Part shown: positions 5,484 through 16,398 of the stretch, piece by piece
Layout: the number at the start of each line of letters is the position of its first letter
Position numbering within the stretch: position 1 is the first letter of the stretch
Assembly (NCBI RefSeq): GCF_018336915.1
Contig: NZ_CP064922.1
Location: forward strand, 1 to 16,615
DNA: 16,615 nucleotides
Reading direction: 5' to 3'
From: Acaryochloris marina S15
Lineage (GTDB): Bacteria > Cyanobacteriota > Cyanobacteriia > Thermosynechococcales > Thermosynechococcaceae
Program-made: the position numbers and the translations under genes
Notes under the pieces: generated by a model
Database searches by the model: none
The model's input: only the letters and a program-made list of their open reading frames with translations
What the model was told of the DNA's origin: nothing

Positions 5484-5505
5484 TTAACTTCTACCAAGAA
5501 GTTAA
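5484..5505. terminator. Hairpin between convergent genes (weak bidirectional terminator candidate)
   Basis: TTAACTTCT-acca-AGAAGTTAA forms a perfect 9-bp stem. It lies between the YgiT gene stop (5460) and the - strand operon stop (5521). The stem is AT-rich and has no clear U-tract. Confidence 0.3.
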
Positions 5506-5520
5506 GCAATCTATAAAATC

Positions 5521-6045
5521 TCAACCTAGTTTTACGCTGAGGCCAGAGTTGGGCTTTACCAATGGGCTTCCAAAACTTGCCTTAGTGCGTTTGAGTTGTG
5601 CTTCAACCTCTTCAATAGATACACGATTTCCGAGCAATTTTTGTGATTCTGGTCTAGGCTCAGAACGCTCTTTGGCTCGATAGATAACCAGTTGTGAGAT
5701 TCCTTCGTCTCGCGCACGTTTGCAAAGTCCGAGGATATAAAATCGATTGAATTGTCCTTCCGCCATTGTTTCTGCGGCTGTATCCGGAACATGCTTAATT
5801 GTATAGCCACCTGATGGTTTGTGAGCACCTTCAAACTCTTTCATTAATGCATTCGCTTCAAGCTGATAAGCGAGCCAATGCTCATTATGTTTCTCAGCAG
5901 CCTGTTTAAGTAGTGAAAGCCATTGATCTTTTCCTGCCTGATTAAATCGATTACTGTAATATATGTTGTTGGTTCTATCTGCTTCTTCAATAGCTTGTAA
6001 CATTGAAGCACGAGTTACACTGTCAAGATTCTCAAAATCAAACAT
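5521..6045 (-). CDS. Hypothetical protein (174 aa), last gene of the four-gene operon
   Basis: Its start overlaps the HNH gene stop (TAATG at 6043-6047). I recognise no family. Its composition is clearly less AT-rich than the three upstream genes (27/60 G+C on line 5701-5760). Confidence 0.7.
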   Translation of the reverse strand: MFDFENLDSVTRASMLQAIEEADRTNNIYYSNRFNQAGKDQWLSLLKQAAEKHNEHWLAYQLEANALMKEFEGAHKPSGGYTIKHVPDTAAETMAEGQFNRFYILGLCKRARDEGISQLVIYRAKERSEPRPESQKLLGNRVSIEEVEAQLKRTKASFGSPLVKPNSGLSVKLG

Positions 6046-6371
6046 TATCTGTTCTCTCCTATTTCAATTTTTACTGATTTTTTTCTATTGCAATTGCTAC
6101 AGAGAAGTTGAAAATTTTTTTTATCTACGGCAAATTCAGGATACTTACTTATAGGTTTTATGTGATCCATTTCTAGTAGTTCAATAGGTAGTTTTGTTTT
6201 GCATTTGCAGTTTGGATTTGCGCATAGAGCACCTTGTTCTGAGTACAGACTAAGTTTTAGAGACTTACCTTCATCAGAACTTCTGAAACTTGAGTATCTA
6301 TTGATAGCAAATTTAATGAGTCTTTTTTCTATATATTTCTTACTATTAATATAATTCTTGAAGAAATTCAT
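6045..6371 (-). CDS. HNH endonuclease
   Basis: The 108-aa protein contains CANPNCKC...LEMDHIKPIS...NFQLLCSNCNRKK. That is the Cys pair, DH and N...CxxCN layout of the HNH motif. ATGA start/stop overlap with the upstream gene lies at 6368-6371. Confidence 0.85.
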   Translation of the reverse strand: MNFFKNYINSKKYIEKRLIKFAINRYSSFRSSDEGKSLKLSLYSEQGALCANPNCKCKTKLPIELLEMDHIKPISKYPEFAVDKKNFQLLCSNCNRKKSVKIEIGENR

Positions 6372-6715
6372 CTTTGAATAGATTCGAGCATTTTCCCTAC
6401 TGACTTAAATTTTCTTTCCAGTTCTTCTTGATTGGAATAAAATTGGCTTATTAATGAAGGTTTTTCTGGCTTCTTGAATTCTATTATTTTATATTTATTT
6501 TGTATATTTATTTCTAGATTTTCCAATGATCTTATGGTCGTATTTTTTGTTCTTGGAAGCTTTTTGTATAAACTTATTGATTTTATGACCTCGCTAATAT
6601 TGTAGAAGTAAGTCAATCCTTTGATATTCAAATATTGAATATTTTTTGTTATTTTTACTGCTTGATATTGGCTTGCCCCTAAATCTCTAAGCTGTCGCCT
6701 TGTGATCGTTTTCAC
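6368..6715 (-). CDS. Hypothetical protein (115 aa), possible N-terminal HTH
   Basis: The GTG start overlaps the upstream stop (GTGA at 6712-6715). The N-terminus TITRRQLRDLGASQYQAVKITKN is weakly excisionase/HTH-like. The gene is very AT-rich. Confidence 0.6.
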   Translation of the reverse strand: MKTITRRQLRDLGASQYQAVKITKNIQYLNIKGLTYFYNISEVIKSISLYKKLPRTKNTTIRSLENLEINIQNKYKIIEFKKPEKPSLISQFYSNQEELERKFKSVGKMLESIQR

Positions 6716-7092
6716 GCGGCTTTCTCCTCTTCATAGTCGTTAATCTCTTTTTCAAGATCACTATCTTTCTGCCAACCATTGGGAATAGCCCATCTATATA
6801 AAGGACCTAACTTACACATTAAGAAGTCAATTAACTGCTGAACTTTATTTTTATGATCATCAAAATCTTTTTTGAGATTTTTGTATGAATTATCTATTTT
6901 CGTAACTTGAGTTTTTGCTCCACGACGATCATATTGTCTTTGTAGAAGTTCTGGCCCAGCGTAACTTGCCAAAGCTAATGCTGCTGAGAGATCGTCTGTT
7001 GGTCTGATTGATACATTTTTAAATGCTCGTTTTGCATCGGCTGCTGTCCAACCTAATGATTGAGCAAATTTTATAAACTCTGCTTGAGTCAT
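6712..7092 (-). CDS. Hypothetical protein (126 aa), first gene of the four-gene operon
   Basis: ATG at 7092 is followed by about 300 bp of AT-rich non-coding DNA upstream. I recognise no family. Confidence 0.6.
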   Translation of the reverse strand: MTQAEFIKFAQSLGWTAADAKRAFKNVSIRPTDDLSAALALASYAGPELLQRQYDRRGAKTQVTKIDNSYKNLKKDFDDHKNKVQQLIDFLMCKLGPLYRWAIPNGWQKDSDLEKEINDYEEEKAA

Positions 7093-7398
7093 TTTTAGAT
7101 AAAGCTTTTCTATCTTAAGCTTATACTGCCCAAATCTTTATATATAGCTGCCAGACTGGATAACAGCTTAACTATTCATCTATGTCTAGTCATTTTCAAG
7201 AATGACGATGCAAGAGATTTAGTATCTATAAATCCTAGGAATATTCGATATTGATAAACTCCCACCCTATCTCGCTAGTCGCCAACTATTGATAATTACT
7301 TAGCAGGTTCAGGGAAGAGGATAAAGCAGTTCTGGTTCTTGCCTAGGTGCAATCGAATATAGATGAAGATTGTCTTAATGCTTACTTTGTAAATGAGT

Positions 7399-8976: not shown

Positions 8977-9276
8977 TCAATTTTTGTGGTCTAATCGGTA
9001 ACCAAGAGCATGCATGATGGCATTGACACACTCGAATTTCGGATTACCTTGCTCCGAAAGAGCTTTTTGCAAACCCTTTCTCTTCATCCCGGCAGCAACT
9101 GCAGTTTCTGTGCTACCCCGTGCGCATGCTACGGTACGGAGAGAAGCTAGAAGCGCTCCGATATTTTCATCTTTGGCATATTCCTCAAAGATGACAGAAA
9201 TGTATTCCTCGATTTCCTCGGGATGCTGGCGAAAATAATCGTTCTCGATCTGATCAAGAGTCCTAAGTTTATGCAT
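8977..9276 (-). CDS. Addiction-module antidote protein (HigA-like HTH antitoxin)
   Basis: The 99-aa protein shows the pattern ...IGALLASLRTVACARG...GMKRKGLQKALSEQGNPKFECVNAIMHALGYRL. This is typical of the antidote partner of RelE/ParE-superfamily killer proteins, by recollection. Confidence 0.75.
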   Translation of the reverse strand: MHKLRTLDQIENDYFRQHPEEIEEYISVIFEEYAKDENIGALLASLRTVACARGSTETAVAAGMKRKGLQKALSEQGNPKFECVNAIMHALGYRLDHKN

Positions 9277-9518
9277 TATCTAGATAATCTCTCCAGTAAT
9301 TCCTCGTTTTTTTGATGTCTTGGGTCTGAGTGCTCTTATCTCACAAAGAATGATCGCAATTGTGCTTCTGTCCTCCCCGAAATAAACTCTGTATCAAGTA
9401 GGACCAGCAGGGGCATCTGAACAGAAAGTTACGGTTTTGAATTTTTAGGAATTCTCGCACTGATCTTCTTGGGATTAAGGCTTGATCCTGCCTGGTCTGC
9501 TTCAATTTCTGTATCCAC
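9269..9518 (-). pseudogene. Decayed addiction-module killer (RelE/ParE-superfamily) gene
   Basis: The - strand translation yields family-like pieces in three different frames. The first is VDTEIEADQAGSSLNPKKISARI.. followed by a stop. The second is ..GPT*YRVYFGEDRSTIAIILC, with an in-frame TGA at 9394-9396. The third is DKSTQTQDIKKTRNYWRDYLDNA*. The ancestral stop TAA (9269-9271) overlaps the antidote ATG (9274-9276), as in intact pairs. Confidence 0.7.
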
Positions 9519-9761
9519 TATTAAGTAAGGGTTTTAGCGATTCTGGGCTTCATCGCTAAAAAAAGATAGCTTGAGAAGGTTTACTGAGCTTTGAGTTTTA
9601 GGTGAGTTTTCTTGTGCTGATCGTGGCCATAATCTGACCAAATGCGGAGTGTCAAAAAAACGAGGGTTTTCTGATCGAACAAACGTACTACAGGTGAACT
9701 ATTTATAGGACATGGGTTTCAGGTGAAACCGTAGGTTTTTGTTCAAATGCGCACGCTGGTC

Positions 9762-9939
9762 CAACTCATTCGCTCGATAGGCCGTATTAATCCCCCAGTG
9801 TAAACAGACACAGATTCCGAGGACTACCCGACAACAGCTGCTTAATCCCCGAGATTGCTTTCTTCGTCCGAATCGGCTCCACTTTAATCGAAGATCCCAA
9901 CTTCGGATGGCTTGGCTTGGATCCCTTCGGCAATGGCAT
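9762..9939 (-). pseudogene. N-terminal fragment of a tyrosine recombinase/integrase, frameshifted and truncated
   Basis: The - strand reads MPLPKGSKPSHPKLGSSIKVEPIRTKKAISGIKQLLSGSPRNLCLFTLG. A run of 5 C (9792-9796, G on the - strand) then shifts the frame. With one base fewer it continues INTAYRANEL, the ..PRN..LF.LGINT..R..EL pattern of integrase N-terminal/core-binding regions. No catalytic domain follows. Confidence 0.5.
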
Positions 9940-10053
9940 AACCCACCTAAAAAGTAATTAAGTTATCTTCCTTATCAACCTATAACTTAATCACCTTATT
10001 TTCCCTTCTCACCCAGACAAAGCCCCAACCCACCACTCCATCTTCATCCCATC

Positions 10054-10108
10054 CCCCTACTCTCTATGATTAACTATTGGCTCAATAGTTAATCATAGAG
10101 AGTAGGGG
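10054..10108. repeat. 55-bp perfect palindrome (26-bp arms, 3-nt loop)
   Basis: The left arm is CCCCTACTCTCTATGATTAACTATTG (10054-10079), the loop is gct, and the right arm is CAATAGTTAATCATAGAGAGTAGGGG (10083-10108). I checked base by base and found no mismatch. Confidence 0.9.
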
Positions 10109-10122
10109 TAAGACCTATCCGG

Positions 10123-10286
10123 ATATTGCTAGGTGGTGAGGTGAGATTATCTCATACCCTCTTGGAAGTCCCCTTGGAATCAGTACTTCGGGGAAAATAT
10201 ATAAGATCACACAGAAATCTGAAAGTCTCTGATGTTGAAGCATTTTAGCAAGGGGGATGAAATAATCTCCCACCACCATATTGCTA
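10123..10286. mobile_element. 146-bp MITE-like element (10132-10277) flanked by a 9-bp direct duplication
   Basis: ATATTGCTA occurs at 10123-10131 and 10278-10286. Immediately inside are imperfect terminal inverted repeats. The left one is GGTGGTGAGGTGAGATTATCTC (10132-10153). The reverse complement of 10259-10277 is GGTGGTGGGAGATTATTTC. There is no credible ORF inside. Confidence 0.6.
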
Positions 10287-10496
10287 TAGATGATAGGAAA
10301 GATCACTTTTGCAGGAAAGTCAAAAAGATTATTGATAAAGTAAATGCAATAAAAACCTAAAATGTATAAAGTAAAATCATTCTAGTGCTATTTGTATTTG
10401 AATGTACCCTAAATCATCAAAGATGCTGCGGAGCTACTATTTTGTGCGTCTTCATCTAATCCAAGACTTGTTTTATTGATAGTTTATAAATAAAAA

Positions 10497-12542
10497 TTAC
10501 TGGGTCAGTTCATTCCCATCTACATCAACCTGATGAATAATTTGGGAAGAGTGAATTCGCCATTTCTTGTAGTACTCGGAAACATCATTACGATGGATTT
10601 TTCTAGGTTCGACTACACATCCAATTGCTCTATCTTTTATGAAATCAAAATCACCACTCAATAGATCTGTAAAAAAGGATAAGGCTGCCTGAGTGGCCAT
10701 CCCAGTAATTCCGCCAATCCAAATAACATTGTTATCCAGATTAAAAATACTCTTTGAAATTATTACAAACCCTGCATGTGGATGATCATTTGAATGTGAG
10801 CCAAAGTAAGTTTTATTATTAGAACCTCCCGCAACTACTGGCTCAGTACATCTGCCATCAGGCGTCATAGAAAATTTTAACGGTTCAATGACATGATTCA
10901 ACAGAGCTGCATAAAGATTGATAGTTCCAGATCCAACAACAATAACATTTCGATCCGTGACTAAGTCAGCAGTATCTTGCCATTCATCAATTCCTACTTT
11001 TAGATCTAGTTTATTGATCTTTGATAATGCTTCTATTAAACCAACCGTATCACTAGTTGCAGCACTCGTAAGCAGGCCTCCTCTATCTCTATTTGTCTCT
11101 CCTAAAATAACTGCCCATTTACTCCTTACGCCTGACATACATTCTTGCAAATCTTTTAGTGTTATGTCAGGCCGTAGATATCCCCAGTTTAAGAAGCATA
11201 ATGCAGGTATGGCATCTTTTTGGTTTAGCGTAAAATGTCTAGCTAACTTTTCTTCTTGAGGGTTTAAAGCACGGTGTTCAAGAATATAACGGTCTGATTC
11301 TTTGGTTGGACGAAACAACCTTTCTATAAGTACTAGTTTGCTATAAACAGAGTTTGATACTGCAATGCGACCAGTGGGACACTCTTTTTGCAATTCAAGT
11401 GCAGTTCGTAATCCCTCAGATCCCCCTACTTGTCTCTGATCATTAGGAATATCGCTTAATTGCGTATCTTCACTGTTAAGTGCAATGCCAATACGCACAA
11501 ACAATGGCGTATTTCTAAGCACTTCGTTTTTTATATTTAGATGCTGCAGATGTTCCAGAAATCTTAACGAAGCAAAAGCAGCTTCCTGTGGATCATCATA
11601 TAAATATATTCTACAGTTACCTTCGCATAGCCATTCATGACCACCAAAGTTTTTACAAAATATTTTCTCTGAAATCTCTGCGAAATCTCTCATAAATGCT
11701 TGATATGAGACATCTGCATTCACTAGGGTTCGAAGCTGTTCAATATGGGAAATATCCATATTTACAATTGTCTCCGGCACTGACCTCATCAACTGCTCTC
11801 CCAGTTGTAAATTAGCTGTAGCAATCTTGAGTCGATATCCTAAATCTTCCATCACAAATATTTGTGGTGTCATTTCAGGAAATTTTTCTCTTGCTTTGTT
11901 ACTAACATAATGATGCAAATCGCCAGTAGTAATTACATTATCAGCATCTATATCTGCTTCACCTGTGCGAATACCCTCCACCAAATGATGAGTATAAATC
12001 GACAACCGTTCTCCAGTTTCATGAAATGAATATTCTGTTGAGCTTGATGATGTCAGTACTACTCGACCCTCTGCTATCAGTTCTCTTTCTATATCCAATT
12101 TCCCATCATCAAGAAATCTTCTATTACCAAATGCTCCACTAAAACAGCAATCTAAAATTATCACCTGCTTTTTGGCCTTACAGGAATTCAGCCAATCATT
12201 CACAGATTGAGCAGCCAGTGCTGTTGAGGTTAATAACTTATTGCCTTCCTTTTGGCTTGTCTTTGCAGCAAAATAGAGCTGTAGTTGGAAATCTTTTACA
12301 CCATGCCCAGTTATGTAGAGTAAGACAAAATCATCTTTCTGGCGACGTCTTAGCCAAGTTTCAATTTCCTCTCCCATCTCCCCATGAGTAGGGTCTTCCA
12401 ACAAGTCTACCTCTTCAAAATTACCCATCGCTGGGTTGAGTAATACTTCTTGAAGTTCTCTGAGATTATTGTGAGGAAATCTTCCGAGATGTTTGAATGA
12501 TGTGTAATCTGCTGTACCAATCAATAAAGCAACTCGTGCCAT
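10497..12542 (-). CDS. Caspase-like (peptidase C14, orthocaspase-type) protease fused to a divergent cyclase-homology-like domain and a Gly-loop Rossmannoid C-terminal domain
   Basis: The first ~245 aa show the caspase pattern ALLIGTADY..., YITGHG (His80) and VIILDCCFSGAF (Cys133, codon 12144-12146). Residues ~255-440 thread by eye onto class III nucleotidyl cyclases (VNMDIS.., FGGHEWLCEGNCRIYLY, LFVRIGIALN, GGSEGLRTALELQKECPTGRIAVSNSVYSKL). Residues ~470-681 have beta-strand/Gly-loop units AVILGE, NVIVVGSGTINLYAALL and VIWIGGITGMATQAALSFF. The protease call is confident; the other two domains are hypotheses. Confidence 0.8.
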   Translation of the reverse strand: MARVALLIGTADYTSFKHLGRFPHNNLRELQEVLLNPAMGNFEEVDLLEDPTHGEMGEEIETWLRRRQKDDFVLLYITGHGVKDFQLQLYFAAKTSQKEGNKLLTSTALAAQSVNDWLNSCKAKKQVIILDCCFSGAFGNRRFLDDGKLDIERELIAEGRVVLTSSSSTEYSFHETGERLSIYTHHLVEGIRTGEADIDADNVITTGDLHHYVSNKAREKFPEMTPQIFVMEDLGYRLKIATANLQLGEQLMRSVPETIVNMDISHIEQLRTLVNADVSYQAFMRDFAEISEKIFCKNFGGHEWLCEGNCRIYLYDDPQEAAFASLRFLEHLQHLNIKNEVLRNTPLFVRIGIALNSEDTQLSDIPNDQRQVGGSEGLRTALELQKECPTGRIAVSNSVYSKLVLIERLFRPTKESDRYILEHRALNPQEEKLARHFTLNQKDAIPALCFLNWGYLRPDITLKDLQECMSGVRSKWAVILGETNRDRGGLLTSAATSDTVGLIEALSKINKLDLKVGIDEWQDTADLVTDRNVIVVGSGTINLYAALLNHVIEPLKFSMTPDGRCTEPVVAGGSNNKTYFGSHSNDHPHAGFVIISKSIFNLDNNVIWIGGITGMATQAALSFFTDLLSGDFDFIKDRAIGCVVEPRKIHRNDVSEYYKKWRIHSSQIIHQVDVDGNELTQ

Positions 12543-12946
12543 TAGCTCAATTGCCCCTTCGCAATCACCTTTACCTTTATTTTCTGAATATCAGCAATTC
12601 GTTCCAAGGCAGCGACTTGAGCATCTAATTCCTGATTAGTTTTGTACTTTAACTTAACTGTACGACCTGCTTCCTCATATTCTAGTTCTAGAAGATGGGC
12701 AGAAAATATATTCAAAAGCCAATCTAAGACCTTTTTGAAATTTGCAAATTTAATTTCTGCTTGTAGAAAACCCAGGTCAAATCTCCCATCTACAGACAAA
12801 GCACCCCGCGGTATTTGATCAGCACGAACCAGTGATGCTCCATCTGAGATTTCTCCCAATTCATCGACAAGCCTTAGACTGTATGCCTCTAAATGTTTCG
12901 ACTCCAACTCCAGATCAGACTGATTAATATCGATTAGAACTTGCAT
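12542..12946 (-). CDS. Small partner protein (134 aa) translationally coupled to the caspase fusion; possibly EACC1-like (unverified)
   Basis: Its stop TAA (12542-12544) shares one base with the caspase ATG (12540-12542). The overall pattern MQVLIDI..ELE..L...L..L.DEL.....LVR....P.GA.S......L....F..VLDWL....LELE...GRTVKL resembles, from memory only, the effector-associated constant component proteins described next to caspase/trypsin effectors. Confidence 0.7.
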   Translation of the reverse strand: MQVLIDINQSDLELESKHLEAYSLRLVDELGEISDGASLVRADQIPRGALSVDGRFDLGFLQAEIKFANFKKVLDWLLNIFSAHLLELEYEEAGRTVKLKYKTNQELDAQVAALERIADIQKIKVKVIAKGQLS

Positions 12947-13041: not shown

Positions 13042-16000
13042 TCATCTCCCTAGTGAAAATCCTTCTTGTCTTATTGAATAACTAATCTGTTGCTCCACTG
13101 ACCGCACACTCGCATTAATCCGTTGATAATCATCAGCTCTAACATCCAACTGCCGCACCTCCAAAATTCCACCAGACTGCCTCATATCAATGGTCTGAAA
13201 AATTGGCTGCTCCATATCATTACGGAATAGTCTCACCCGTTGACTTTCAGACTCAAATCGATAGCGTTGGCCTTGAAAGACGCGCACACCATCTTCCTCA
13301 ACCCCAAACCGATCTAAAATCTTCACACAATTGGCATACAACCCATAAGCCAACTTCAGCTGCTGCAATCGGTCCTGCACATCAGGTTCTTGTAAATGCA
13401 CTACCTTCTCCCGCATCAACTGAGTCTTGGGAGCTTCATCCCACTGTTGATAAATATCCTTCTCCTGCTGCCGCTCTTGCAGCTGTCCCTGCAACTGACG
13501 TAAGGTTCCCTCCACATACCCCAATTGTTGTCTAGATTCCTGCAACAGTTGTCGCTTCGCCTCAATAACCTCTGGCCTTTCTCCACCCCAATTAAACAAA
13601 GACCGCTGTGGCGTCATCTCCTCTAGCTCTTGCTGCTGTTCTCGACAAGAAACCACCAAATCAGATCGCTGCTCTGCCATATACCTCACCTGCCACTGTA
13701 GGTCCTTACCTACTTCAGGATCAGGGGGTTCAGGATGGGCTTGCTGTAGCCATGTCTTCACGTCCCGCTGCAACATCAACAACTCTGCATCCCTCTGTGC
13801 TGAAAACGTTGGCTCTGTAACCACCAAATCCTGAGCATTCTCCTGCCCCCTCGACCGTTCAGCACTCAATCCCAATGCTTGCCGGTCTACAGTCACAATC
13901 TCTAGCTCAGTTTTGGCTCTAGAGAGAGCTACATAGGTCTGCTCTTTCCCTGGATTCTGCCCCGGTGCCCAGATCGCTTCCTGGGCCGTCCATCCTTGAG
14001 CTGCATGAACCGTCCGGCAATAGGCATAGTCCACATGCACCAGCTGGTCAGACATTAACGTCTCGAACTTCCCTCGCGTATTAATCGAGATCGTCCCGTC
14101 CTGATTGAAAGAATCAATCGTCAACAGCTGACCATTGATCTGCCCCCACTCCCGATGATTCCGGGTAAACCTTAATCGGTCCCCGACCCGTAACTCCAAC
14201 TCTTGAGTAGAAAAGACCTCTCGGTCTTTGTATTTATCCAATAAACAATCTTTAATATCACCAAAGCGATCTTGCAGTTGCAGCTGGTCTCCTGTAACTT
14301 CAATCACCCGATAGAAAGGTTCAGAAAATCGCTTCGTAGACCGTCGAAAACGCACCACATCTCCAACTTCGTAGTTGTAAGCCTGGGAGATCGCCTGCTT
14401 ATCTAATTTCTTCGGATGCAGCATCTCTATATCTTGGGCTTCAGCTCCCAAGGTTTGACGGTCAATATAAGCTGACCGAATCAAATTAGTGATGTCTCGC
14501 CGGTCCTGATTCGTATCGCAGATGATTAGTGTCTGTACCTGTCGCTCATGGGGTCGGGATAGATATCTCTGGGCTACTCCATGATTGCGAGTCTTCAATA
14601 TCGGAATCTCTTGTACACAGCCATGACTATCTAATAGCTCTAGCGCTGTCTGAGTCTGTTGCTCTGCTGCTAGGTCTACGGCTTCCTTTAACTGCGGGGT
14701 CACCTGTCGCAGATTCTCATCAATGGTTACGGTCTTGAGCTGAGAACGCTCCTGCAATAATCGGAAGGGTGCGCCTGCTTGCACTGCATTCAATTGCTTT
14801 ATATCTCCCACTAAGATCAATCGGCTATTCAGGTCTTTAGCTTTCTCAATCAAGGCCACCATTTGCTGAGTGGAGAGCATTCCAGCTTCATCAATCACTA
14901 AAGTTTCTTCTCGTTGCAGCTGCTCATTCGGCATCAACAGGTAACGGTCTACTGTACCTGATACCATCCCAATTTCTTGCCCCAATACTTCCGCTGCTGC
15001 TGCGCTGGGCGCTAGCCCTCTCAATTTTGATTGAGCAGTGTTGTCTAAAGCCCCTCTAAAAGCAGATAAGGTATAGGTCTTTCCTACTCCAGCATTGCCT
15101 TGTAATAAAGTAATCAGATCTGTACTTATTCCAAGATGCAATAACCCATTTGTTTGACCAGTATTGAGATTCTTCTCTGCTGAGGTTGCTCTCACCTGTT
15201 CCGGTGTTATCAAAGCAGCTTTAGAATCTCGACCTTCATTAGCAGAATCCAGAATTATCTGCTCTCGATGAATTGCTCTATGAGTTGTTAAGCGACCATC
15301 TTCTGTAGGAATTAATTCCTGAGACTGATCTAATGCTTGCTCTATCTCTATTGGTGAATAAAAGGCTTGAGCATGGCGTAGACAATCTTGTAATAATCTA
15401 GGTCGTGAAACAGCTACTTGTTGTGCTGTAGCACTCTCAATTGCATCATCAATGACTCTCTGGATACTGCCAGGATGTGCAGTTTGCTTATAAGCTTGCT
15501 CTAACTCTTGATGGGGCTGGGGATGAATAATGTTGAGTTCAGTACTAGTTTTTTGCCAGTTCTGTCGCTGTAGATCACGATCTGCTGGAATTAGTTTATG
15601 CACCTTCGCGACTCGACTGTCTAAACAAGCTATCTGCTTTTGATGCTCTGTTGCTTGTTCAATCGGAATATTCTGTTGCTCTAAGTAAGCTCGGATATCT
15701 TGCCGTCTGCTGCTAAAAGACTCTAGTTGTTCTGGTTCATAGCCTTGGATTTCGAAGGTATGGTCACCAGTCCAGTCAATCTCAAAGTCTTGCTTCTGTA
15801 GTTGACGAGCAAAGGTATGGTCATAGTAAGCACCGATAGTCTTCTTCTGGTTAAAAAGCTCTCGACTATCTAAAGTTCTTGATTTCCCATCGGCACATAG
15901 GGTCTGATTGAGAATCACAACATGGGTGTGTAGCTGTGGTTCTTGGTTGCGGTTATCATCATGTTCAAATAGGGCAAACTGTCCTTGCTTGGTTTGCTCA

Positions 16001-16398
16001 CTGATGACTTTCCTCTGTTGTTTGACTTGGGCAAAGATGCAGTGCTCTTCTATATAGTTGACAGTTGCATTGACGGCTTGGCGATGGGCCTCTAGTACTC
16101 TTTGATCTTGATCTACTAATCCCTTGATAGATGCAGACTTACTAGCTGACAGGGTAATATCCCATCCGGCCCTACTATTCTTTTGCTGTCGTCTTAAAGC
16201 TTTATTGTTGCTGTCTTTGCCATGACAAGCTTGTTGCCATTGCTCAGCGGTGATGCTTCCGGTTAGATTTTGGTGTTCTGAGAATTGTCCTTGCCATTGG
16301 GAGTTCTCTAGTCCATCCCCTTGACTGTAGTAATTATCCTTAGAGTGATAGGTCTCTAAGGCTTTAGCATTCATCGGTTTGCTGATGCTAGCAACCAT
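13042..16398 (-). CDS. MOBF-family relaxase-helicase (TrwC/TraI/TraA-like) with Gln-rich coiled-coil C-terminal extension
   Basis: N-terminal relaxase motifs are ETYHSKDNYYSQG (Tyr region), WDITLSASKSASI and FEHDDNRNQEPQLHTHVVILNQT (3-His motif, close to TrwC FRHETSRERDPQLHTHAVILN). The RecD-like helicase shows LLQGNAGVGKTYTL (Walker A), LVIDEAGML (Walker B), LILVGDIKQL, TVHAAQGW and YVALSRAK. The last ~270 aa are Q/E/R-rich. Confidence 0.95.
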   Translation of the reverse strand: MVASISKPMNAKALETYHSKDNYYSQGDGLENSQWQGQFSEHQNLTGSITAEQWQQACHGKDSNNKALRRQQKNSRAGWDITLSASKSASIKGLVDQDQRVLEAHRQAVNATVNYIEEHCIFAQVKQQRKVISEQTKQGQFALFEHDDNRNQEPQLHTHVVILNQTLCADGKSRTLDSRELFNQKKTIGAYYDHTFARQLQKQDFEIDWTGDHTFEIQGYEPEQLESFSSRRQDIRAYLEQQNIPIEQATEHQKQIACLDSRVAKVHKLIPADRDLQRQNWQKTSTELNIIHPQPHQELEQAYKQTAHPGSIQRVIDDAIESATAQQVAVSRPRLLQDCLRHAQAFYSPIEIEQALDQSQELIPTEDGRLTTHRAIHREQIILDSANEGRDSKAALITPEQVRATSAEKNLNTGQTNGLLHLGISTDLITLLQGNAGVGKTYTLSAFRGALDNTAQSKLRGLAPSAAAAEVLGQEIGMVSGTVDRYLLMPNEQLQREETLVIDEAGMLSTQQMVALIEKAKDLNSRLILVGDIKQLNAVQAGAPFRLLQERSQLKTVTIDENLRQVTPQLKEAVDLAAEQQTQTALELLDSHGCVQEIPILKTRNHGVAQRYLSRPHERQVQTLIICDTNQDRRDITNLIRSAYIDRQTLGAEAQDIEMLHPKKLDKQAISQAYNYEVGDVVRFRRSTKRFSEPFYRVIEVTGDQLQLQDRFGDIKDCLLDKYKDREVFSTQELELRVGDRLRFTRNHREWGQINGQLLTIDSFNQDGTISINTRGKFETLMSDQLVHVDYAYCRTVHAAQGWTAQEAIWAPGQNPGKEQTYVALSRAKTELEIVTVDRQALGLSAERSRGQENAQDLVVTEPTFSAQRDAELLMLQRDVKTWLQQAHPEPPDPEVGKDLQWQVRYMAEQRSDLVVSCREQQQELEEMTPQRSLFNWGGERPEVIEAKRQLLQESRQQLGYVEGTLRQLQGQLQERQQEKDIYQQWDEAPKTQLMREKVVHLQEPDVQDRLQQLKLAYGLYANCVKILDRFGVEEDGVRVFQGQRYRFESESQRVRLFRNDMEQPIFQTIDMRQSGGILEVRQLDVRADDYQRINASVRSVEQQISYSIRQEGFSLGR

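Follow-up and report, generated by a model that had tools for sequence, protein, structure and literature searches.

A small contig of Acaryochloris marina S15 (NZ_CP064922.1; the window analysed here is this complete contig of 16,615 bp) carries on its minus strand a gene for a 681-residue caspase, and a first-pass annotation, made from the DNA letters alone, proposed that the part of this protein encoded at 11223..11780 (residues 255–440) resembles a class III nucleotidyl cyclase whose second metal-binding aspartate has been replaced. The locus raises the question of whether this likeness is real and, if so, whether the domain still produces a nucleotide signal or has been retained for some other purpose beside a protease. 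Our preferred answer, to which we assign a probability of roughly 60%, is that the cyclase homology domain (CHD) and the C-terminal domain that follows it (domain X) constitute a pseudo-cyclase sensor-switch that would gate the caspase within an EACC1-caspase two-gene conflict module, acting in abortive infection or addiction. The features on which the argument turns are as follows:

10497..12542, minus strand: open reading frame (ORF) translated as the 681-residue three-domain protein (caspase, apparently degenerate CHD, domain X)
11886..12536, minus strand: caspase domain, EACC1-associated type, residues 3–219 (Pfam PF00656, NCBIfam NF047832)
11325..11771, minus strand: class III CHD, residues 258–406, with the fold extending to about residue 420 (profile, hidden Markov model (HMM) and Foldseek)
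11136..11324, minus strand: conserved linker, residues 407–469, with an invariant F-R-P and conserved Gln, Pro and Trp (alignments)
10500..11135, minus strand: domain X, residues 470–681 (alignments and AlphaFold2 model)
12542..12946, minus strand: ORF for a small EACC1-like protein of 134 residues, the stop codon of which overlaps the caspase start (TAATG)

The longer protein is identical to NCBI WP_212661634.1, named 'caspase, EACC1-associated type', from Acaryochloris marina.

Homology of the middle domain to class III cyclases

Direct scans of the 681-residue protein with Pfam, NCBIfam and PADLOC matched caspase models only, the PF00211 model giving no match, and a phmmer search of the PDB returned only the MALT1 paracaspase; because these single-protein scans found just the caspase, kinship to cyclases becomes visible only by way of homologues. 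A search with residues 247–681 retrieved six proteins of 299–469 residues that consist of the middle and C-terminal parts only, one of them carrying the NCBI name 'adenylate/guanylate cyclase domain-containing' and two giving sub-threshold matches to PF00211. Word-indexed searches yielded eight relatives; the rest came to light only when 1.84 billion representatives were scanned exhaustively with HMMER. That scan gave 3,183 matches at E ≤ 1e-3, approximately 35 of which (representatives at 50% identity) share both the CHD and domain X; most of the other matches listed cover the cyclase part only, and a few are X only or fragments. PF00211 is detected at E ≤ 1e-3 in 79 of 89 proteins matched in the cyclase part only, which serve here as an outgroup.

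With the homologues included, sequence and structure comparisons agree. All 22 matches of the family profile (A1) in the PDB are class III adenylyl or guanylyl cyclases, the best being P. aeruginosa CyaB (3r5g, E 3e-8) and M. avium Ma1120 (E 2e-7), and hhalign comparison of the family with the PF00211-bearing outgroup gave 99.8% (E 1.1e-29) over 153 columns. An HMM of the outgroup cyclase domain recognises the 681-residue protein alone at residues 258–406, with 53.6 bits (E 9e-19, single target). An AlphaFold2 model of residues 235–681 has a predicted local distance difference test score (pLDDT) of 76 overall and of 85–92 across most of the CHD, with lower confidence in the linker. When this model was compared with the PDB using Foldseek, the top 50 matches were without exception class III adenylyl or guanylyl cyclases (E about 1e-6), with target-normalised template modelling (TM) scores of 0.53–0.78, mostly 0.6–0.78, for 49 of them and a single outlier, the multidomain target 4yut, at 0.34. 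On these comparisons and the model we take residues 258–406 to be a genuine class III CHD, the palm-like beta-alpha-beta-beta-alpha-beta fold being specifically that of a CHD and not of GGDEF or another palm family.

The profile-profile and fold searches that the first-pass annotation had itself named as able to overturn its proposal have accordingly come out in favour of a class III cyclase match. Its by-eye register also proves correct at every motif, the quoted motifs lying exactly where they had been placed: VNMDIS at residues 260–265, FGGHEWLCEGNCRIYLY at 299–315, DPQEAAFASLRFLEHL at 317–332, LFVRIGIALN at 347–356 and GGSEGLRTALELQKECPTGRIAVSNSVYSKL at 373–403. Relative to the PF00211 cyclase domains (CyaB 3r5g, Ma1120 4wp8 and CyaC 1wc0), the fold is the same and the motifs are collinear; whereas such domains are situated C-terminal to a sensor, however, the CHD considered here lies between a protease and an uncharacterised domain.

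Catalytic residues

Catalytic positions were mapped using printed alignments to CyaB and Ma1120, the hhalign register and a 35-sequence family alignment, and are taken to be equivalent to D396, D440, R484, K938, N1025 and R1029 of mammalian adenylyl cyclase. The resulting assignments, made from the alignments and hhalign, are:

11754..11756, minus strand: Asp263, first metal-binding Asp, kept
11628..11630, minus strand: Leu305, at the position of the substrate-specifying Lys
11616..11618, minus strand: Asn309, at the position of the second metal-binding Asp (GD to GN)
11493..11495, minus strand: Arg350, phosphate-binding Arg of the R-x-G-I motif, kept
11394..11408, minus strand: Arg379 to Glu383, at the positions of the transition-state Asn and Arg, both replaced

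Like the PF00211 cyclases, the domain thus keeps the first metal-binding Asp (of F-x-D-I) and the phosphate-binding Arg (of R-x-G-I-H) but, unlike them, it has replacements at the second metal-binding Asp, the substrate-specifying Lys and the transition-state Asn and Arg, so that four of the six canonical positions are changed, although most family members keep them. All 89 outgroup cyclases have the second metal-binding Asp, as do 26 of the 33 family members; its replacement by Asn309 is common to the closest homologue, P0002. The Lys/Glu position four residues before it, here Leu305, is variable across the family, and the Arg379/Glu383 pair fails to match not only the textbook Asn and Arg but also the Asp/His pair of the clade itself (see below). 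The loss of the second Asp had been recognised in the first-pass annotation, as had the retention of the first; the changes at Leu305, Arg379 and Glu383 had been missed.

In mammalian adenylyl cyclase the metal-binding pair D396/D440 is required, and a degraded second site is found in the C1/C2 heterodimer and in Rv1900c. In heterodimeric cyclases, however, each half keeps complementary residues, whilst the CHD here has lost both C1-type (second Asp) and C2-type (Lys, Asn and Arg) residues, and for this reason an active site would not be expected even in a heterodimer. Every class III enzyme that has been characterised, the Pycsar pyrimidine cyclases among them, needs both of its metal-binding Asp residues (PMC11224242). 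This CHD is therefore probably catalytically degenerate, a pseudo-cyclase that has lost cyclase activity. Two interpretations had been offered initially, a divergent cyclase and a palm domain that has lost its activity and been put to regulatory use; with four of six positions changed, the second is favoured and the first disfavoured.

The CHD-X family and its effector fusions

Members of the CHD-X family are usually standalone proteins with intact catalytic residues and the consensus D...GD...R...[D/N]xxxH; no Pfam model reached its gathering threshold on those scanned. Their nearest ordinary cyclases (P0059–P0153, alignment A4) are for the most part anchored in the membrane or linked to CHASE2 and have about 590 residues; in them D, GD and R are invariant (89/89), with Asp (86/89) and His (83/89) in place of the textbook Asn and Arg; the same clade has a D-V-A-x-S-T-x-x-K motif in place of F-x-D-I-x-G-F-T. 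Because the metal-binding set and the Asp/His pair are kept in most members and in the nearest clade, the CHD-X lineage as a whole looks enzymatic, albeit with a non-canonical catalytic pair. In 11 loci from Acidobacteria, Nitrospirae, Ignavibacteriales, a Bathyarchaeia metagenome-assembled genome (MAG) and metagenomes, no conserved partner genes were found beside standalone CHD-X genes, the cross-locus matches being antisense shadow ORFs only, and these genes accordingly look like self-contained sensor-cyclases.

Four family members carry an N-terminal extension, and none of the four has Asp at the second metal position:

681-residue protein: N-terminal caspase; Asn at the second Asp position
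P0010: N-terminal CHAT; Glu at the second Asp position, the first Asp also being Glu
P0019: N-terminal TIR; Asn at the second Asp position
P0016: N-terminal unknown domain of 146 residues; Glu at the second Asp position

Three standalone members (P0002, P0003 and P0017) also lack this Asp. In a rough neighbour-joining tree all members without it fall in one derived clade, interleaved with the intact P0004, P0005 and P0009, which implies several independent losses, and the deeper branches are all intact and unfused. Such a pattern is what we would expect if catalysis became dispensable once an effector was attached directly. No further caspase-CHD-X fusion was found in genome or metagenome collections, and the present protein is the sole one among the approximately 40 representatives and loci examined.

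Some further observations concern the distribution of the family, which is scattered very widely relative to its small size. One standalone gene, in a Bryobacteraceae MAG (L001, 12745..17410), has phage genes for capsid, cement and attachment within a few kb. The locus of the member in the Bathyarchaeia MAG (L009) is apparently the same as that of a metagenome contig (L019), ORF layout and N-terminal sequence being identical.

A broader evolutionary interpretation is possible, although we consider it doubtful. CHD-X would be an undescribed sensory module in which evolution has short-circuited a second-messenger pathway, from active, X-governed cyclases to catalytic decay and effector fusion. 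The ancestors would have been standalone active cyclases with the unusual Asp/His pair, governed by X as a new ligand-binding domain; the CHD would have decayed repeatedly to a pseudo-enzyme scaffold within one derived clade; and death effectors (caspase, CHAT, TIR) would have been fused in that same clade, to be activated allosterically by X sensing with no diffusible nucleotide.

Domain X

Domain X (residues about 470–681), together with the F-R-P linker, is more conserved than the CHD. Its near-invariant polar motifs (LGE, ATSD, GIDEW-D, GSG-N-Y, GITGM-T and WRI), all intact in the 681-residue protein, lie at strand ends of an alpha/beta AlphaFold2 model (pLDDT 75, predicted TM score 0.80). 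A Pfam family was found for X in none of 43 members, and Foldseek gave weak, partial matches only in the PDB and none in BFVD; the weak matches comprise BcsB (E 5e-4, TM score 0.44 on the query), an archaeal S-layer anchor, the N-terminal domains of GH67/GH115 and, at E about 0.1, caspases. Domain X also occurs apart from the CHD, fused to NUDIX (P0045) or TIR (P0103). We regard X as uncharacterised, its pattern of conservation being that of a ligand-binding or catalytic pocket. Two other candidates were considered: a second, degenerate caspase fold was rejected on profile-profile comparison (0.3%), and a SLOG/LOG-like interpretation of the motifs GSG and GITGMGT gained no support from the fold search.

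The caspase and the upstream gene

The N-terminal domain matches Pfam PF00656 at E 1e-13 and the EACC1-associated model NF047832 with 159.1 bits, against a curated cut-off of 140. Its catalytic His/Cys dyad, His80 (YITGHG) and Cys132/133 (LDCCFSG), is intact, and H80, C132 and C133 are invariant in alignment A7.

The caspase gene is translationally coupled to the 134-residue ORF upstream, for which neither homologues by word search nor a family match were obtained. As no curated EACC1 model matched, a reference set was defined by synteny and published features, consisting of the ORFs (120–137 residues) in the same 5' position beside the five closest plasmid-borne EACC1-type caspases that have one. 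Compared with a profile of these five using hhalign, the 134-residue ORF scores 21.3 against 11.0 ± 2.0 for shuffled sequences, none of 300 shuffles reaching that score. A tblastn search matched the protein, at 30% identity, to the last 120 residues of a Nostoc Roc-COR protein, and a two-sequence profile of the ORF and the Nostoc match gave 94.8% (E 5.5e-8) against the EACC1-position ORFs. On this evidence the 134-residue protein is a divergent relative of EACC1, and it is predicted to be a protoxin and substrate of the caspase; we call it 'EACC1-like' because it is without the hydrophobic, small-residue-rich helix discussed below.

The Nostoc match itself (L028, Nostoc sp. UHCC 0926 plasmid pn3, 4998..5360) forms the C-terminus of a 1162-residue Roc-COR GTPase whose gene adjoins a MoxR ATPase, several EAD10 proteins and a NACHT protein, so that the small 'constant component' can also be part of a large conflict-system protein. 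More distant plasmid caspases could not extend the reference set, their 5' partners being others (TIR, nuclease or a second caspase): in Proteus pPp47 (L026) and B. cereus pAH187_45 (L027) the small 5' partner is a TIR-domain protein or 'nuclease' in place of EACC1, and these two loci illustrate partner swapping at the 5' position.

Comparison with known conflict systems

EACC1-caspase systems have been described by Kaur, Burroughs, Iyer and Aravind in 2020 (PMC7159879) and by Evans et al. in 2025 (bioRxiv 10.1101/2025.11.14.688446). Such pairs combine one constant small protein with a caspase that bears one of some 50 alternative C-terminal domains, including nucleotide-utilising ones (PMC7159879), and EACC1-associated caspases are fused to diverse sensors (bioRxiv 10.1101/2025.11.14.688446; PMC7159879). 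In the Ktedonobacter system, and there only, a sensor-activated caspase has been found to cut EACC1 after Asp, releasing a C-terminal fragment that permeabilises membranes (bioRxiv 10.1101/2025.11.14.688446). The present locus resembles these systems in having a small 5' gene on the same strand followed by an N-terminal EACC1-type caspase with a variable C-terminal region, an intact dyad, a plasmid-borne and cyanobacterial setting, and a 5' ORF homologous to same-position ORFs. It differs from described EACC1-caspases in that the C-terminal region is a pseudo-cyclase plus the undescribed domain X; a caspase + cyclase architecture string is absent from the supplement of PMC7159879, and a caspase-pseudo-cyclase-X combination was not found described.

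Inactive cyclase domains are themselves familiar in this context, since cyclic nucleoside monophosphate (cNMP)-cyclase domains fused in related conflict proteins frequently lack catalytic activity and are linked to peptidases (PMC7159879). Those of the vWA-MoxR systems likewise keep the cyclase fold for regulation or as a scaffold with a peptidase in the same polypeptide (PMC7159879). The description of a caspase joined to a cyclase-like domain as 'unusual' was accordingly overstated, given both the approximately 50 C-terminal domains of EACC1-type caspases and these precedents for a protease with an inactive cNMP-cyclase domain (PMC7159879).

Other defence systems share part of this logic. 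In Pycsar, too, a cyclase domain of class III type is found in a defence system, the effector types (TIR) overlap with those of the family, and PycC models give weak matches to the intact relatives P0004 and P0005 (E 5e-6). In Pycsar, however, an active cyclase acts with a separate effector containing a cyclic-nucleotide-binding domain, whereas here a degenerate cyclase is part of a single chain; PADLOC gave no PycC match for the 681-residue protein, and no cNMP-binding domain was found in this protein, in the CHD-X family or in the window ORFs scanned. Single-chain defence proteins of the Avs/STAND type have the same order of effector, central switch and C-terminal sensor, although their central module is a STAND NTPase in place of a cyclase fold. 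EACC1-type caspases are known fused to Avs sensors (bioRxiv 10.1101/2025.11.14.688446).

Proposed mechanism

An EACC1-type caspase-pseudo-cyclase-X protein with a coupled EACC1-like gene leads us to read the locus as an EACC1-caspase two-gene module on a mobilisable plasmid, in which the CHD-X unit would occupy the sensor position and act as sensor and switch. The first-pass annotation saw the cyclase domain but overlooked domain X and the upstream gene, which together define the system. In the proposed sequence of events the trigger would be perceived by X or, with less likelihood, by what is left of the CHD nucleotide pocket. To our knowledge the CHD dimerises obligatorily in every known class III cyclase, and here it may serve as a dimeric scaffold or switch that brings together or re-orients two caspase domains. 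The activated caspase would then cleave the EACC1-like protein, perhaps after Asp53; this candidate site, PRGALSVD53|G, aligns with the P-x-G-x-K-G region of the reference ORFs. Cleavage would release a membrane-damaging C-terminal fragment.

Several points weigh against this proposal. Residual catalysis is conceivable, since Asn309 and the nearby Glu307 might hold a metal weakly, and since Arg379, one helical turn from the canonical Arg position, could face the pocket and compensate. The strongly hydrophobic, small-residue-rich helix of EACC1 (PMC7159879) is not found in the 134-residue protein, whose helix is amphipathic: its best 19-residue hydropathy is 0.83, with four charged and two small residues, whereas the reference EACC1-position ORFs have values of 1.39–1.98, 0–1 charged and 7–12 small residues. 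The correlation of fusion with decay is drawn from four fusions and a neighbour-joining tree without support values, and the role of X as a sensor is argued from architecture only, X having no recognisable fold or function.

Alternative explanations

An alternative that we consider unlikely is that the dead cyclase pocket is itself the sensor, binding a nucleoside triphosphate or cyclic nucleotide without turnover and reporting, for example, nucleotide depletion or a phage-made nucleotide, with X serving for oligomerisation or as a second effector. It has been suggested that inactive cNMP-cyclase domains in related conflict systems 'merely bind a nucleotide' (PMC7159879), and such a role would fit the retained first Asp and phosphate-binding Arg; the occurrence of X without a CHD, beside NUDIX or TIR, also implies that X can work independently of the CHD. 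Nevertheless, every position that would specify the base or contact the ribose and phosphate has been replaced, and the Lys position is not conserved across the family, whilst X is far more conserved than the CHD, as expected of the critical ligand-binding part.

Less probable again is a divergent but still active cyclase, the nucleotide messenger of which would be bound in cis by X and switch the caspase on; were this so, signal generator, receptor and effector would be combined in a single chain. The probably enzymatic nature of the lineage, with the metal-binding set and unusual Asp/His pair kept in most members and in the nearest clade, speaks for this possibility, as do the retention of D263 and R350, the conceivable compensation by E307 and R379, and the weak matches of P0004 and P0005 to Pycsar cyclase models (E 5e-6). 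It is countered by the changes at four of six catalytic positions, including the second metal-binding Asp that all class III cyclases so far characterised require (PMC11224242), and by the same decay in the other effector-fused members, which points to relaxed selection on catalysis in exactly this architecture.

We find it highly improbable that the CHD is a decaying relic within a gene that is losing its function. The protein is alone in its cluster and occurs on one contig only, and the adjoining downstream DNA is ORF-free with a recombinase gene remnant; the 681-codon ORF is intact, however, with a coupled gene upstream, the CHD is confidently predicted (pLDDT 85–92 over most of the domain), the same substitutions recur in a 53%-identical homologue, and the caspase dyad and all X motifs are preserved. 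Finally, a by-eye coincidence on an unrelated fold, to which the cyclase-free Pfam and PDB sequence searches with the 681-residue protein alone might lend colour, is refuted by the sensitive sequence and structure comparisons, all of which indicate class III cyclases alone.

Plasmid setting

Judged by its gene content, the contig is a small mobilisable plasmid. Its marker genes include ParA, a serine resolvase, an antitoxin-like gene and an HNH endonuclease, in addition to the following:

13042..16398, minus strand: TrwC-type relaxase-helicase, a plasmid marker gene

The 1.2 kb directly downstream of the caspase gene (9277..10496) contain no ORF longer than 63 residues. Approximately 340 bp near 9762..10102 are 78–83% identical to tyrosine recombinase/integrase genes of other Acaryochloris plasmids, and a second piece has a weak match to a gene annotated 'RNA-binding protein'; the region has the look of a recombination hotspot littered with the remains of decayed genes. 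Beyond it, the antitoxin-like gene (8977..9276, minus strand; Pfam dnstrm_HI1420, E 2e-14) has no obvious adjacent toxin ORF, the same-strand upstream region containing short ORFs only. A block of low guanine-cytosine content at about 5500..7100 (31–35%, against 42–49% elsewhere in the window), with four small same-strand ORFs including the HNH endonuclease (6045..6371, minus strand), is probably a separately acquired cassette. An antisense ORF of 113 residues inside the domain-X coding region (10918..11259, plus strand) was rejected as a separate gene, its apparent conservation in other loci being a shadow of the conserved gene on the sense strand. An Rfam scan gave zero matches, a scan for promoters and terminators performed no better than chance, and a megablast comparison of the locus with plasmids yielded no matching sequence.

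Implications

The EACC1-caspase system class was known already, as were inactive cyclase domains in conflict proteins. What appears to be new is the caspase-pseudo-cyclase-X architecture, seen only once in the family representatives and loci covered here, the CHD-X family, which is rare and has next to no annotation, and the association of effector fusion with catalytic decay. If the preferred reading holds, the A. marina locus would add a sensor type, a pseudo-cyclase with an uncharacterised domain, to the EACC1-caspase systems of protease-gated cell death, the mechanism of which has only recently been worked out. The family itself is a small 'dark' one, defined here as approximately 35 clusters at 50% identity among the 1.84 billion representatives. 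The additional pairings of X with NUDIX and TIR make it a candidate for a new domain that senses ligands in prokaryotic immunity; and since intact and degenerate cyclase domains can be compared within one family, CHD-X may offer a tractable test of how an enzyme is converted to a scaffold upon fusion to an effector.

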